Source: a virus (taxonomy: Duplodnaviria; Caudoviricetes). Taken from it: a stretch of DNA of 30,939 nt. Location: the IMG/VR virus record IMGVR_UViG_3300017648_000011, positions 1-30,939 of that record; one strand, written 5' to 3'. The notes below the pieces were generated by a model. That model saw only the letters and a program-made list of their open reading frames with translations, did no database searches and was not told the DNA's origin. Shown piece by piece: positions 15,926 to 20,483 of the stretch. How positions within the stretch are numbered: position 1 is the stretch's first letter; each line of letters starts with the position of its first letter. The translations under genes were made by a program, and so were the position numbers.

Positions 15926-16258
15926 ATGACAACAGCACGGAAGGCCGCAGGGCCAGTCACGATCCAGGTCGATCTATCGGAACTGGCCAGTTTGACCGGG
16001 CGGGAAATCCGGGATTTCGAGCGGGTGCAGCCGGTCAAACTATCGAACCTCGGCAAAGTTTCGGAGTCCGGTGAGATTCCGGTCGACACGATCTACGGGC
16101 TCGCGTGGGTGTTCCACCGCCGCGAGAACCCCGGCGTGTCATTCGATGACGTGCTCGACATCCCGTTCCGCAACATCGAACTGGTCGGCGCGGAGGTCGT
16201 GGAGAGTGACGACGTCCCTACCGCAGAGCCGGACGGCGCGACGCCGACTGGCTCCTGA
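15926..16258 (+). CDS. Tail assembly chaperone (gpG-like)
   Basis: AGGAGAGG RBS; acidic 110 aa; lies between the tube and tape measure genes. Confidence 0.8.
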   Translation: MTTARKAAGPVTIQVDLSELASLTGREIRDFERVQPVKLSNLGKVSESGEIPVDTIYGLAWVFHRRENPGVSFDDVLDIPFRNIELVGAEVVESDDVPTAEPDGATPTGS

Positions 16259-16419
16259 GTGAGATGCCAGCGCTGGTCAAGTTCTACGGGCTGTCCCCGA
16301 TTGAGATTCGCGACCTGCGCTACGACGAACTACAGGTGCTGATCCAGTTCCGTGACGCGGTTCACAAAGAAGAGCAGAAGCGCGCGCGAAAACAGCGCAC
16401 AGGGCCACGGAGGCGCTAA
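16210..16419 (+). CDS. Tail assembly chaperone extension (gpT-like), probably reached by -1 frameshift; absent from the ORF track
   Basis: The -1 frame is open 16210-16419: ..PYRRAGRRDADWLLSEMPALVKFYGLSPIEIRDLRYDELQVL..RRR*. An internal ATG is present at 16264. Confidence 0.75.
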   Translation, partial: RRPYRRAGRRDADWLLSEMPALVKFYGLSPIEIRDLRYDELQVLIQFRDAVHKEEQKRARKQRTGPRRR

Positions 16420-16422
16420 CCG

Positions 16423-16441
16423 ATGGCAGGCGGACGAACGG
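16423..16441 (+). pseudogene. Orphaned original 5' end of the tape measure gene (MAGGRT)
   Basis: GGAGG RBS at 16409-16413, then ATG GCA GGC GGA CGA ACG G, encoding the same peptide as 17085-17102. Confidence 0.75.
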
Positions 16442-17084
16442 GACAACTGAAATCATGCGATGGCTTTTCGCCTACGCCGTTTTGCTCGAGCGTAGCAGTT
16501 CGTGCAGAGGCCCTTGCCTTTGTGCCGCTGTTCCGTCGTCCCGCATTCCGTGCATCGTTCGTAGTCCAGCGACCAATCGTAGTACGGGCGCTCGGGCATT
16601 TTTTCAGATCGATGCTTTGCGCGGTTATAGCAGGAATTGCAGAGGCCAAACGCGGCGTGCCTCCGATCAGACCGCCCGCACTCTTTGCATGCATCAAAGT
16701 CGCGAGACCATCGCTCGATAGCGAGTGCGGGCGGTCCGTCTCCACCAGAGTTCCGGTTGAAGAGATCAGCTCCGAGCGACTCGTAACGTCTGATCCACCA
16801 CGATTCGCGCTCTCCCCAATCAACGCTGACGGGGACGCTCTCCAGGATGCACATGATGGGCCGCTGCCCGGAGTTGACAAGCGATGCGACCCATTCCTTC
16901 AGCCCGTGATGAGCGCGCGCTTTCGGAGCGCAATGGACGCTCAATCTCCGCATCGGGTTGACGGTCGCGCCGACGTAACGAACTGCACCTGTGCGCGGAT
17001 CTGCCAAAGAGTAGATGTGCCGTTGTTTTTCCATTGTCGTACTCCTTATTCGGAGATTATATCTCCTAGAATCTGGATCGCGTA
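16442..17084 (-). mobile_element. Free-standing homing endonuclease-like cassette inserted in the tape measure 5' end
   Basis: Only antisense gene inside the structural operon; flanked by duplicated MAGGRT coding sequence; visibly more AT-rich than its neighbours. Confidence 0.7.
16453..17034 (-). CDS. GIY-YIG endonuclease with two C-terminal C4 zinc-finger repeats
   Basis: AAGGAG RBS; HIYSL.DPR...RYVG.T....RR...H, E..WI, N...GGDG; then two copies of WS.D...CxxCG.....H...GLCxxCY.RAK. Confidence 0.9.
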   Translation of the reverse strand: MEKQRHIYSLADPRTGAVRYVGATVNPMRRLSVHCAPKARAHHGLKEWVASLVNSGQRPIMCILESVPVSVDWGERESWWIRRYESLGADLFNRNSGGDGPPALAIERWSRDFDACKECGRSDRRHAAFGLCNSCYNRAKHRSEKMPERPYYDWSLDYERCTECGTTEQRHKGKGLCTNCYARAKRRRRKAIA

Positions 17085-17085
17085 A
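17052..17085 (-). promoter_or_regulatory. Putative promoter/operator of the GIY-YIG gene
   Basis: Perfect TATAAT on the - strand (17061-17056) inside the palindrome GGAGAT-tat-ATCTCC (17052-17066); -35 is weak; the spacer matches tape measure 17109-17126. Confidence 0.6.
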
Positions 17086-20000
17086 TGGCCGGTGGGCGTA
17101 CAGTTCGTATCCAGATTCTCGGAGATGCCAAAGGCGCGCAGGGCGCGTTTGGGCAGGTCGAGTCTGCGGCCGGATCGTTCGCGTCCAAAATCGGGACGGT
17201 CGCGAAGGGCGTCGCCATCGGCATCGGCGCGATCGGCGTCGCCGCAGGCGCGATGGCCGTCACCGGCATCAAGGCGGCCTCGGACTATGAGGAGTCGTGG
17301 AACAAGGTCGGCGAGGTTTTTGGTCAGAACGCTGGCCAGATTCAGGACTGGTCCAAAAATGCGGCGCAGTCGTTCGGCCTGAGCCAGAGCGAGGCGCTGG
17401 CGGCGACCGGGACGTTCGGCAACCTGTTTACCGCGATGGGGATCGGGAGCGGCGCTGCGGCCGACATGTCGACCGACATCGTCGGGCTGGCTGCTGACCT
17501 CGGATCATTCAACAACATCGGCACCGATGAGGCGTTGGAGAAAATCCGCGCAGGACTGGTTGGCGAGACGGAGCCGCTGCGCTCGCTGGGTGTCAATCTC
17601 GACGCCGCCTCGATCGCCGCGAAGGCGATGTCGATGGGCCTGGCCGACGCGAGCGGGGAGCTGACGCCAGCCGCGAAGGCGCAGGCAGCGTACGCGCTGA
17701 TTCTGGAGCAGACGACGACTGCGCAGGGCGATTTTGCGCGGACCAAGAGCGGCATGGCGAACTCGCTGAAGATCATCGGGGCGAGCTTCGACGATCTCAA
17801 GGTCAACATCGGGCAGAGATTGCTCCCGGCGATCGCGCCGCTGATCTCGTCGTTCGCGTCGGCGATGCCGCGGGCGCTGGACATGGCGAGCAGTGGGCTC
17901 GACTGGCTGACAGCGCGGCTCCGTGGGCCGATTATCTCGGCCTTCCATCTGATTCGCGATGGCGTGCTGACGTTCATTCAGGCGCTCTCGGGCAACTGGG
18001 CCGATAACGAGAACATCCGCGGCTTCCATCGCGTGATCGGCAATGTCGCACTGGTTATTCGCGAGCAGGTCATTCCCGCGGTACAGCAGATGGTCGCATT
18101 TTTCAGCGGTACCGTGATTCCCGCAATCCAGACGGTTATCGGCATCGTCGGGCAGGTGTCGGCGGCGTTCGGCGAGGGTGGGTTCGCCGGCGTGCTGGCG
18201 ATGCTGGCCGAACGGCTGGGGCCGATCGGTGCGCAGCTGGCGACGTGGGCCGGTCAGGTGTTGACCACGCTGGTCAATCAGATCGGGCAATGGGCCGGGG
18301 CGTTCCTGGACTGGATCGCTCCGATGATCCCGCCGCTGCTGGTCGAGTTGGGCAAAATCGCGTTGGCGCTCGGGACGTGGATGTATGGCACGGCGCTCCC
18401 GGCGATCCTCGCGCAACTCGCGACGTGGGGGCAGGCGCTGGTCGACTGGATCGGGCCGCGCATCGCGCCGATGCTGACGGCGCTCGGGGGGCTGTTATCG
18501 CAGCTGGGCGCATGGCTGCTGAACACCGCATTGCCCGCGATTGTCGAGAAGGTCGGCGAGTGGGGCAGCGCGTTCATCGCGTGGATCGGGCCTCGCATCG
18601 GCCCGATGCTGGCTGAGTTGGGCGGTTTGCTGTCGCAACTCGGCGGCTGGCTGATTGACACGGCTCTGCCGGAGATCGCGGCGAAAGTTTCCGAGTGGGG
18701 CGCAGCGTTCATTGCGTGGGTGGGGCCACAGATCCCGCCGCTCCTGAGCGCGCTGGGCGGGCTGCTCGGCGATCTCGGCAACTGGATCGTCAGTACCGCA
18801 TTGCCGGAGATCACGAGCAAGTTGGCCGAATGGGGCAGCGCTTTCCTCAACTGGGTTGCGACAGATGTGTTGCCGCAGTTGCCTGGCAAGCTGGCCGAGA
18901 TCGGGACGGCCGTCACCGGCTTCATCCTGACGAAGGCCGGCGAATTGGGGACGGCGCTGCTGGGTTGGGCAACCAAGTTCCTGGTCTGGATTGCCAACGA
19001 TGTGTTGCCGCAGTTGCCGGGCAAGCTGGCCGAGATCCTGACGTCCATCGCGGGATGGGTCACCGACTCGCTCGGGTCACTGGCGAGTGAGGGCGGTCGC
19101 ATTGGCCTGTCCATCCTGGAGGGCATCGCGTCCGGCATCCGCGATAGTGCGGCCAGCATCGTCGGCTCGGCGATCGATTTCGTAACCGGGCTGCTGCCGG
19201 AGTGGGTCAAGAAGGGCTTGAAAATCGGCTCACCGTCGAAGGTCATGCACGACGAGGTCGGTATCCCCATCTCGCAGGGCATCGCGACCGGCATGATGGC
19301 TGGCGCTGGATCGATCAAGCTCGCATGGGACTGGCTGTTCGGCGGCATCATGGCTGACGCAAAGGACTACGCCAAACAGGTCGGCTCGGCATTCGAGGGT
19401 CTGTTCGGCTCGATCAGCGATCTCGCGTCCGGCACCTCGATCAAAAACGCGCAGGCGGAGCTGGACCGGCTGCTGACCATCCGGCAGATCGCGATCGACA
19501 CCGGCGCGGGTGAGGCGGCGGTGGCGGGCATTGATGCGCAGATCGCTGAGCAGCAGAACCGCGTCCAGGCGATCGGTGCTGCGATGGGAACCGACATCGT
19601 GCGCGGCATCACCGATCAGATGCAGTCCGCCGATCTGGCCGCGTCGCTGGCGGAGTCGGTATCGGCTGCATGGTCAGCGTCGCTGGGCAACCTCGACAGC
19701 ATCCTGTCCGGCGAACGGATCGGTGCGCTACAGGACACGCTACGTGGGCTGGAACAGCAGCTCGCGCTGGCGCTGGTGGGCGGCGCTCCTGAGGATGTTG
19801 TCAAGGGCATCCGGGAGAACATCGCGGCGGTGCAGCGCGAACTGGGCGCGTCGCAGCAGATCTACGACGACGCGATGAATGCCGGGCTGATCGACACGTC
19901 GGTGTTCCAGATGCCGCTCGACAAGATCGCCGAATTACTGCCGCAGATGCAGGACGGCGGGCTGTCGATGATCGACGAGCTGGTCAGGGGCGTCGCGGAC

Positions 20001-20483
20001 GGCTCCGCTTCCCTCGGCGGCGCGATGGCGACGATTCAGGGCATCGTGGCCGCCGGTTCCGACAAATTGCCGGAGACGATCGGTGCCTCTGTATTCGAGG
20101 TGATCGACGTCCTCAAAGACCTCGATAAGTCGCTGACGGTCGATCTGGCACAGGCGTTCGCGACTGGTGATGAGGCGGCGGAAGGCATTCAGCAAAACCT
20201 GGCGATCGTCGCGTCCCTGCTGGGCGATCTGCAGGCGCAGGCCGACGCGACCGCGAAGAGCATCAAGGGCGTGAACGCGGTTACGGGGCAGAAAATCGTG
20301 CGGCCGGACGGTCGCAGTGCCGACAGCGGCGGGAGCGGGTTCGAGTCAGCGGGCGGATCCGGCGGCGGTGGGACGCGAATCGGCGGGCAAACCGTGCTGA
20401 TGATGCCGGACGCGACGCCGCTGCTGACCTGGTATGCGTACGAATCCACGCAGTCCGAGGCGCTCTGGCCGGTGACTGGATGA
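17085..20483 (+). CDS. Tape measure protein
   Basis: 1132 aa, Ala/Gly/Leu-rich and helical; ASDYEES..KV..VFG, AADLGSFNN, GETEPLRSLG, LKIGSPSKV; Trp-periodic repeats. Confidence 0.96.
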   Translation: MAGGRTVRIQILGDAKGAQGAFGQVESAAGSFASKIGTVAKGVAIGIGAIGVAAGAMAVTGIKAASDYEESWNKVGEVFGQNAGQIQDWSKNAAQSFGLSQSEALAATGTFGNLFTAMGIGSGAAADMSTDIVGLAADLGSFNNIGTDEALEKIRAGLVGETEPLRSLGVNLDAASIAAKAMSMGLADASGELTPAAKAQAAYALILEQTTTAQGDFARTKSGMANSLKIIGASFDDLKVNIGQRLLPAIAPLISSFASAMPRALDMASSGLDWLTARLRGPIISAFHLIRDGVLTFIQALSGNWADNENIRGFHRVIGNVALVIREQVIPAVQQMVAFFSGTVIPAIQTVIGIVGQVSAAFGEGGFAGVLAMLAERLGPIGAQLATWAGQVLTTLVNQIGQWAGAFLDWIAPMIPPLLVELGKIALALGTWMYGTALPAILAQLATWGQALVDWIGPRIAPMLTALGGLLSQLGAWLLNTALPAIVEKVGEWGSAFIAWIGPRIGPMLAELGGLLSQLGGWLIDTALPEIAAKVSEWGAAFIAWVGPQIPPLLSALGGLLGDLGNWIVSTALPEITSKLAEWGSAFLNWVATDVLPQLPGKLAEIGTAVTGFILTKAGELGTALLGWATKFLVWIANDVLPQLPGKLAEILTSIAGWVTDSLGSLASEGGRIGLSILEGIASGIRDSAASIVGSAIDFVTGLLPEWVKKGLKIGSPSKVMHDEVGIPISQGIATGMMAGAGSIKLAWDWLFGGIMADAKDYAKQVGSAFEGLFGSISDLASGTSIKNAQAELDRLLTIRQIAIDTGAGEAAVAGIDAQIAEQQNRVQAIGAAMGTDIVRGITDQMQSADLAASLAESVSAAWSASLGNLDSILSGERIGALQDTLRGLEQQLALALVGGAPEDVVKGIRENIAAVQRELGASQQIYDDAMNAGLIDTSVFQMPLDKIAELLPQMQDGGLSMIDELVRGVADGSASLGGAMATIQGIVAAGSDKLPETIGASVFEVIDVLKDLDKSLTVDLAQAFATGDEAAEGIQQNLAIVASLLGDLQAQADATAKSIKGVNAVTGQKIVRPDGRSADSGGSGFESAGGSGGGGTRIGGQTVLMMPDATPLLTWYAYESTQSEALWPVTG
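18291..19100 (+). repeat. About six tandem 135-bp (45-aa) repeats in the tape measure gene
   Basis: Trp codons start units at 18291, 18426, 18561, 18696 and 18831; near-identical DVLPQLPGKLAEI coding at 18864 and 18999. Confidence 0.9.

Follow-up and report, generated by a model that had tools for sequence, protein, structure and literature searches.

How can a gene for a homing endonuclease occupy the start of an essential phage gene when no intron or intein is apparent that would remove it? The question is raised by a stretch of 30,939 nucleotides of tailed-phage DNA (positions 1 to 30,939 of IMG/VR record IMGVR_UViG_3300017648_000011; Duplodnaviria, Caudoviricetes), referred to as the window, in which the tape measure protein gene is preceded by an antisense GIY-YIG endonuclease gene and, ahead of that, by a second copy of its own first codons. 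The answer that we favour, with rather more confidence than doubt, is a mobile antisense homing-endonuclease cassette that brings its own, probably captured, codons 1 to 6, while the stop-free frame of the old start hands ribosomes over to the new one. Through read-through and restart, this likely selfish gene would be harmless without splicing.

The duplication was reread in the sequence and is as the initial annotation had it. The peptide MAGGRT is encoded twice, from the ATG at 16423 and from the ATG at 17085, and the third base of codons 2 to 6 differs in every case. The copies share 14 of 19 nucleotides and diverge beyond the first base of codon 7; in the six frames of the window MAGGRT is found at these two positions only. 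The chance of such an upstream match was estimated at 1.2×10−4 per kb of upstream sequence; out of 23 gene starts tested, one had a six-residue match upstream and the next best had four residues. With a score of 27 against cross-pairing null maxima of 26 (n = 600) and 28 (n = 1489), the six-codon stub is at the edge of noise by score alone, and it is considered real because of its position, its ribosome-binding site and the layout in relatives. Diverged tape measure proteins start with MAG-x-RT-V/L-K-IEILG, from which MAGGRT is taken to be the conserved N-terminus.

The first copy, or stub (16423..16441, plus strand; codons 1 to 6 and the first base of codon 7), has the position that the tape measure start occupies in two distant loci lacking the insert, L026 and L160, directly behind the stop codon of the tail assembly chaperone. 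This supports the stub as the ancestral start and an insertion after codon 6, both of which had been proposed. L026 has the same order of tube, neck and chaperone genes, with identities of only 36% (tube) and 32% (neck), and its chaperone gene also ends in a GGAGG followed by the tape measure start; L160, the one useful hit among four distant tape measure matches in a search of 301 genomes, has a similar layout. The expected alignment with uninterrupted relatives was thus obtained for the layout, which points to copy 1 as the original, but not for the breakpoint, both loci being too distant at the nucleotide level. In the window the original ribosome-binding site, GGAGG (16409..16413, plus strand), has a predicted duplex energy of −9.5 kcal/mol. 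The inserted cassette, as given by the distance between the copies, measures 662 nt (16442..17103, or equally 16423-17084; limits 3 nt wider or narrower are also possible). Its right end consists of the replacement codons 1 to 6 (17085..17103, plus strand), so that the new start is indeed carried on the insert, and leads into an intact tape measure protein gene of 1132 amino acids (17085..20483, plus strand; assigned with PHROGs).

The gap is filled by an intact antisense gene, as stated earlier, for a GIY-YIG endonuclease of 193 amino acids (17034-16453, minus strand), which passes the Pfam cut-off of PF01541 (24 bits against 22.6) and leaves 11 nt of non-coding DNA on the left and 50 nt on the right. 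The signature, GIY-x10-11-YIG in general form, reads HIY...YVG. A catalytic domain (residues 1-100) is accompanied by two modules of the form W-x6-CxxC-x6-H-x3-G-x-CxxC, putative DNA-binding modules that number two to five in the nine full-length relatives (40-62% identity), all of which also retain Y8, Y20, G22, R30, H34, E77 and N93. In a profile search R30 and E77 align with positions mutated in I-TevI structures, and Tyr, Arg, His, Glu and Asn, the catalytic residues of GIY-YIG nucleases, are all in place. The I-TevI catalytic domain was matched by both profile and fold (template modelling (TM) score 0.67 on the target, E 0.03), the E-values being weak. The fold model had a predicted local distance difference test value of 80.7, and I-TevI and UvrC domains were among its top matches listed, none of which reached E≤0.001.

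Tape measure genes often contain endonuclease introns that are spliced out (PMC10448857), and removal of the insert from the RNA, or a ribosomal hop across it, has to be considered. The tape measure gene of phage ICP1 belongs to the same class of target; there, according to the same source, splicing restores the gene and codons are not duplicated. In the window, Rfam gave no match at E≤1, the folding z-score of the insert was −1.65 and only 61 nt are non-coding, and a duplicated start would be pointless beside an intron. The nuclease gene is antisense, and the stub frame runs into a stop and differs in register from the tape measure frame, all of which is contrary to an intein. Ribosomal bypassing of the type known from T4 gene 60 involves a stop right after the take-off codon and a short gap. 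Here no stop follows the stub for 220 codons, and the gap of 662 nt puts the two starts in different frames. The earlier conclusion that neither intron nor intein is present was upheld by database, folding, strand and frame alike, and an intron or a hop is scarcely credible.

What the initial annotation had missed is that the stub is not a dead end: a stop-free frame extends from it up to the new start. This bridge frame (16423..17085, plus strand) comprises 220 codons from the stub ATG, lies in register antisense to the nuclease gene and ends in a TAA (17083-17085) that shares a base with the second ATG (TAATG). The remaining two frames across the insert contain 10 and 8 stops. The ribosome-binding site predicted at the old start is strong (−9.5 kcal/mol), against −3.1 at the new start, which has almost none. 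A stop within −10 to +4 of the new ATG occurred in 0.47% of 20,000 simulations with a random register, and in 1.4% with the register given.

Antisense stop avoidance was also looked for in a survey of 75 distinct GIY-YIG open reading frames (ORFs) with at least 200 nt of flank, drawn from the best 80 of 217 viral loci, 10 genome loci and five earlier ones (six loci had no usable ORF). Stops in the in-register antisense frame are absent from 5 of the 74 ORFs other than that of the window. The strongest evidence for bridging is a family of antisense GIY-YIG genes in a structural operon, L190 (G+C content (GC) 0.45), L252 (GC 0.43) and L009, the last dropped by the flank filter of the survey and then added. 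These genes contain no TTA, CTA or TCA codons, against 15.9, 11.0 and 10.0 expected from GC-matched peers (P between 5×10−9 and 6×10−6, codons treated as independent), and they are mutually only 39-46% identical; as one locus family they were counted as one event, kept through divergence. The stop-free antisense stretches span 266-346 codons (1245-2417 of L190 and 1425-2528 of L252 in antisense view, and L009). They end in TAATG in L190 and L009 and 14 nt into the next gene in L252. The first codon in L190 and L252 is a GTG, equipped with a ribosome-binding site, immediately in front of the nuclease stop. That antisense homing-endonuclease genes in phage late operons are in general selected for a stop-free reverse strand, with ribosomes from the old start reading through and restarting at a replacement start, has in our view about even odds. 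If true, translational bridging would stand beside RNA splicing, protein splicing and ribosomal bypass as a way to silence such an insertion.

The initial annotation had also asked whether homologous endonuclease genes are flanked by duplicated, recoded N-termini. Duplicated gene ends were found around other endonuclease genes: starts at L023, L022/L025, L150, L195 and L197, and ends at L198 and L182. In L023 a 14-codon methyltransferase stub precedes a sense HNH gene, and the new start overlaps the HNH stop; the duplicate has seven synonymous changes and one amino-acid change over 14 codons. Here the frame of the stub ends 12 nt ahead of the start of the HNH gene (L023 559-630, minus strand), and with the overlap of HNH stop and new methyltransferase start translation would be continuous in this sense-oriented case too. 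L022 and L025, which share 796 nt with three differences and have unrelated DNA upstream, hold an antisense HNH gene behind a 10-codon stub. In L025 three of the 10 duplicated codons differ in amino acid, and the stub frame of 202 codons terminates 1 nt ahead of the new ATG (chance 0.9% with random register, 2.7% with the register given). Replacement codons 4-6 of both loci, read from the other strand, give TTGTCA; a TA-x3-T hexamer lies 17 nt away and the likely GTG start of the HNH gene about 7 nt further on (L025 2500-2560). The replacement start may hold the nuclease's own promoter. The stub of L150 is fused in frame to a sense GIY-YIG gene ending in ATGA on the new start, and that of L195, a duplicated helicase start (score 49), is likewise fused to the nuclease; both show many amino-acid changes, as does the start duplicate of L197, from a gene without a Pfam match that we take to be kinase-like. 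At the 3' side, L198 repeats about 66 codons of an SNF2 helicase and L182 the end of its upstream gene. In geometry these two phage GIY-YIG genes with a duplicated upstream C-terminus equal the fungal mitochondrial mORFs discussed below.

Systematic scans put these cases in proportion. A strict start-anchored scan recovered the window and L150 alone, both of which had been placed in the set by design, and missed L195 and L197. A looser scan gave scores of at least 50 in 6 of 150 tests and in 0 of 299 controls; on inspection, duplicates were present in 4 of 73 other GIY-YIG loci, two at the 5' side (L197, L195) and two at the 3' side (L198, L182). Six-codon stubs like that of the window would mostly escape these scans. 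A survey of the Cys/His module returned 12 metagenome loci, one of them the window itself, and L022/L025 and the window had the only credible stubs among 86 module ORFs with both flanks. No nuclease-linked stub was present in six annotated phage regions around HNH matches or in two around L023 matches. Several candidates were rejected: L011 (score 29, GC 76%) and L035 (score 26) as low-complexity or internal matches, L177 (score 60) as tandem helix-turn-helix (HTH) paralogues, and two matches to the exact tape measure start pattern as chance. The starts of the tape measure relatives L001-L004 are unrelated.

Where, then, did the second copy come from? The initial annotation had the element recode the codons itself, and on this point the other cassettes disagree, their amino-acid differences and their duplicates of up to about 66 codons fitting the capture of a diverged allele. 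Capture is judged the more likely origin, since nearly all other duplicates differ in amino acids as well. The donor was not found, and the evidence for a foreign origin of copy 2 consists of six codons with atypical codon use; both copies have Gly4, which diverged relatives lack, and this requires a donor close in protein and yet saturated at wobble sites. Replacement codons 2-16 score below every one of the 74 15-codon blocks further along the tape measure gene, although 3 of 16 other genes have starts with similar scores; the atypical codon use may reach to about codon 16. Alternatively, along the lines of the initial annotation, the first codons could have been duplicated in place and recoded under selection, either to escape the enzyme or to prevent excision between direct repeats. 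Differences at five of five wobble positions with unchanged amino acids, the Gly4 shared by both copies and the rare codons of copy 2 would all suit this scheme, and six codons are too few to decide between the two origins. It is nevertheless rather improbable, given the amino-acid changes elsewhere (1 of 14 codons in L023, 3 of 10 in L025, many in L150, L195 and L197), the long duplicate of L198, the codon-use score of the stub, as low as that of the new codons (0.38 against 0.34), and the foreign origin documented for the mitochondrial analogue (PMC3630166).

Under the favoured reading, a nuclease gene residing before a diverged tape measure allele would have cut the allele of this lineage near codons 6-7. 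On the side of the gene the break would have been repaired by homology, which introduced the first codons of the donor, and on the far side by a non-homologous route, which left the stub behind. Further spread would occur by homing into empty alleles through homology on both sides, and immunity would follow from the junctions, neither of which restores the original site, the right one being altered by the wobble differences. Ribosomes would load at the GGAGG and ATG of the old start, read the 220-codon frame, terminate at TAATG and reinitiate at the tape measure start; the late mRNA would stay covered by ribosomes, limiting polarity on the downstream tail and lysis genes, and insertions with continuous translation would be those that survived.

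The insert is absent from the distant L026 and L160 and nearly invariant on seven contigs with more variable flanks. The 220-amino-acid bridge product, which gave no family match in Pfam and PHROGs searches, is present in the protein collection as four variants on seven contigs. Only 3 of its 220 residues vary, each reachable by a change that is silent in the nuclease gene, and two of the three have no other single-base route. The chaperone is represented by 10 variants with 92-99% identity and the tape measure protein by a variant with 95%, the contigs of bridge, chaperone and tape measure variants not being matched one to one. A near-invariant cassette amid variable flanks suggests a conserved nuclease and recent spread. 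The nuclease might instead be a non-homing accessory enzyme for defence or competition, joined to a piece of the neighbouring gene in a single illegitimate recombination and inherited since. Its top fold match, a 5-hydroxymethylcytosine (5hmC)-specific restriction enzyme with a low TM-score, and the lack of a close empty allele would agree with this, but the modular nuclease with Cys/His modules swapped among GIY-YIG and HNH proteins, the near-invariance relative to the flanks and the seven parallel cases make it quite implausible.

Several observations weigh against the favoured reading. No close empty allele was obtained, L026 and L160 being distant, and the eight closest nuclease relatives come without genomic context; viral contigs scanned with a single protein and with a first alignment yielded no close relative with context either. 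Gly4 is common to both copies and absent from the seven nearest diverged relatives, and the 5'-duplicate design is a minority, seen in 2 of 73 other GIY-YIG loci. Three of the five ORFs with a stop-free antisense frame (L183, L253 and L150) are GC-rich, run in the same direction as their neighbours and resemble antisense shadows. The genes downstream in L190 and L252 come with good ribosome-binding sites of their own (−10.2 and −9.3) and no codon stub is present, so that a bridge is unneeded for initiation there; in this family ribosome cover against polarity may matter more, and a function of the bridge peptide itself is possible. Lastly, a stop-free in-register antisense frame alone has a chance of 0.06-0.26 at the GC of the window, and predicted sites are weaker than −5 at 7 of 19 starts of this phage, coupled and uncoupled. 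These last points would equally fit a cassette of the same origin whose stub is a dead relic, the open frame being a GC-rich antisense shadow and the new start using its own weak site, as other starts of the window do; 2 of 19 relatives with GC 0.55-0.65 also have an open antisense frame. A dead stub is unlikely, although the most serious of the alternatives, as it does not account for the stop placed exactly on the new ATG (0.5-1.4%), the recurrence of a stop at the new start in L025 or the strong stop avoidance in L190, L252 and L009.

The closest published parallels are the mobile endonuclease ORFs (mORFs) of fungal mitochondria, which form gene hybrids with atp6 in Allomyces macrogynus and with atp6, atp9, cox2 and nad3 in Glomus (PMC3630166), and for which foreign origin and mobility are documented (PMC3630166, PMC7487136). 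As in the window, a free-standing endonuclease gene lies in a gene without splicing, a second copy of the gene end keeps the gene whole and the native end is displaced. The window agrees with these hybrids in the duplicated gene terminus beside an endonuclease ORF and departs from them in the terminus concerned: in mORFs a diverged foreign copy replaces the C-terminus and the nuclease is co-oriented, whereas here, in a phage, it is the N-terminus that is replaced, with an antisense nuclease and a new translation start that has to be served. GIY genes duplicated with the N-terminus of atp9 are mentioned in PMC7487136, in its accessible part without detail. As to whether the arrangement is undescribed, which had been left undecided, the 3' form is in print (PMC3630166), and for start replacement or a bridging frame in phages no account was found in a literature search that covered few subscription journals and no supplements; PMC7902536 contributed nothing decisive. 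The start replacement mirrors the known C-terminal replacement of mORFs, and the translational bridge is the distinctive part.

The seg and mob genes of T4 share with the cassette intronless homing, by a GIY-YIG nuclease without an intron, the displacement of host expression signals with replacements supplied, and coupling at overlapping stop and start codons; segD lies antisense among structural genes (PMC2988022). They differ in their intergenic insertion and in cleavage sites hundreds of bases away, whereas the layout of L026 and L160 places the insert of the window inside ancestral coding sequence. A stub or duplicated start is not described in the accessible part of PMC2988022; mobE in nrdA of Aeh1 and mobA in gene 60/39 split the protein and do not replace the start, according to that source. 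I-TevI, encoded in the td intron of T4, resembles the nuclease in the sequence and fold of its catalytic domain and in a modular DNA-binding tail, and differs in being intron-encoded and in its other DNA-binding modules. Replacement gene ends with a different spelling are also carried by SXT in prfC and by phage 21 and e14 in icd, elements that, unlike the cassette, are integrase-mediated, excisable and tens of kb long.

The locus would show how a selfish nuclease can occupy an essential gene of a polycistronic operon without intron or intein, with the start replaced and the ribosomes kept running. From the stub the probable cut region can be placed within a few bases, which makes the target site of an uncharacterised GIY-YIG family, one bearing a widespread and unannotated Cys/His module, directly testable. 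A caution for annotation is that on most contigs of this phage group gene callers choose the 220-amino-acid bridge frame over the nuclease (seven contigs against one in the protein collection).

The genes for terminase, portal, protease, capsid, tail tube, neck, tape measure and endolysin are all on the plus strand of the window. Between neck and tape measure genes, in the same place as in L026, lies the likely first part of the tail assembly chaperone (15926..16258, plus strand; 110 amino acids), without a family match in Pfam and PHROGs searches, followed by a likely second part of 51 amino acids (16264..16419, plus strand; stop 16417-16419), whose last codons contain the GGAGG. The two ORFs are 5 nt apart, and no obvious slippery heptamer was seen between 16230 and 16270.

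Likely expression signals of the nuclease gene, read from the sequence, are a TATAAT (17061-17056) and an AAGGAG (17047-17042) on the minus strand (17042..17061); the TATAAT was not listed by a promoter scan, no −35 box reaching the threshold. An inverted repeat with 6-bp arms, GGAGAT-TAT-ATCTCC (17052..17066), overlies the −10 box and is a candidate operator or hairpin. A longer upstream transcript could pair with the nuclease ribosome-binding site (17040-17072), as described for T4 endonucleases. No cleavage motif of the CNNNG type could be assigned from the sequence. The Cys/His module (16480-16720, minus strand, in the window; loci L010-L149) has no Pfam family of its own and occurs in one to five copies on GIY-YIG, HNH, HTH and other proteins, and about 120 such stretches are present in the genome collection. 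Most of the 121 genome loci that have it encode other proteins (HTH or, by eye, LAGLIDADG-like), and many proteins with the module are not nucleases. One genome, G004, has nine module matches (L080/L081, L151, L155, L157), with several near-identical ORFs of about 305 amino acids that are possibly a mobile element.

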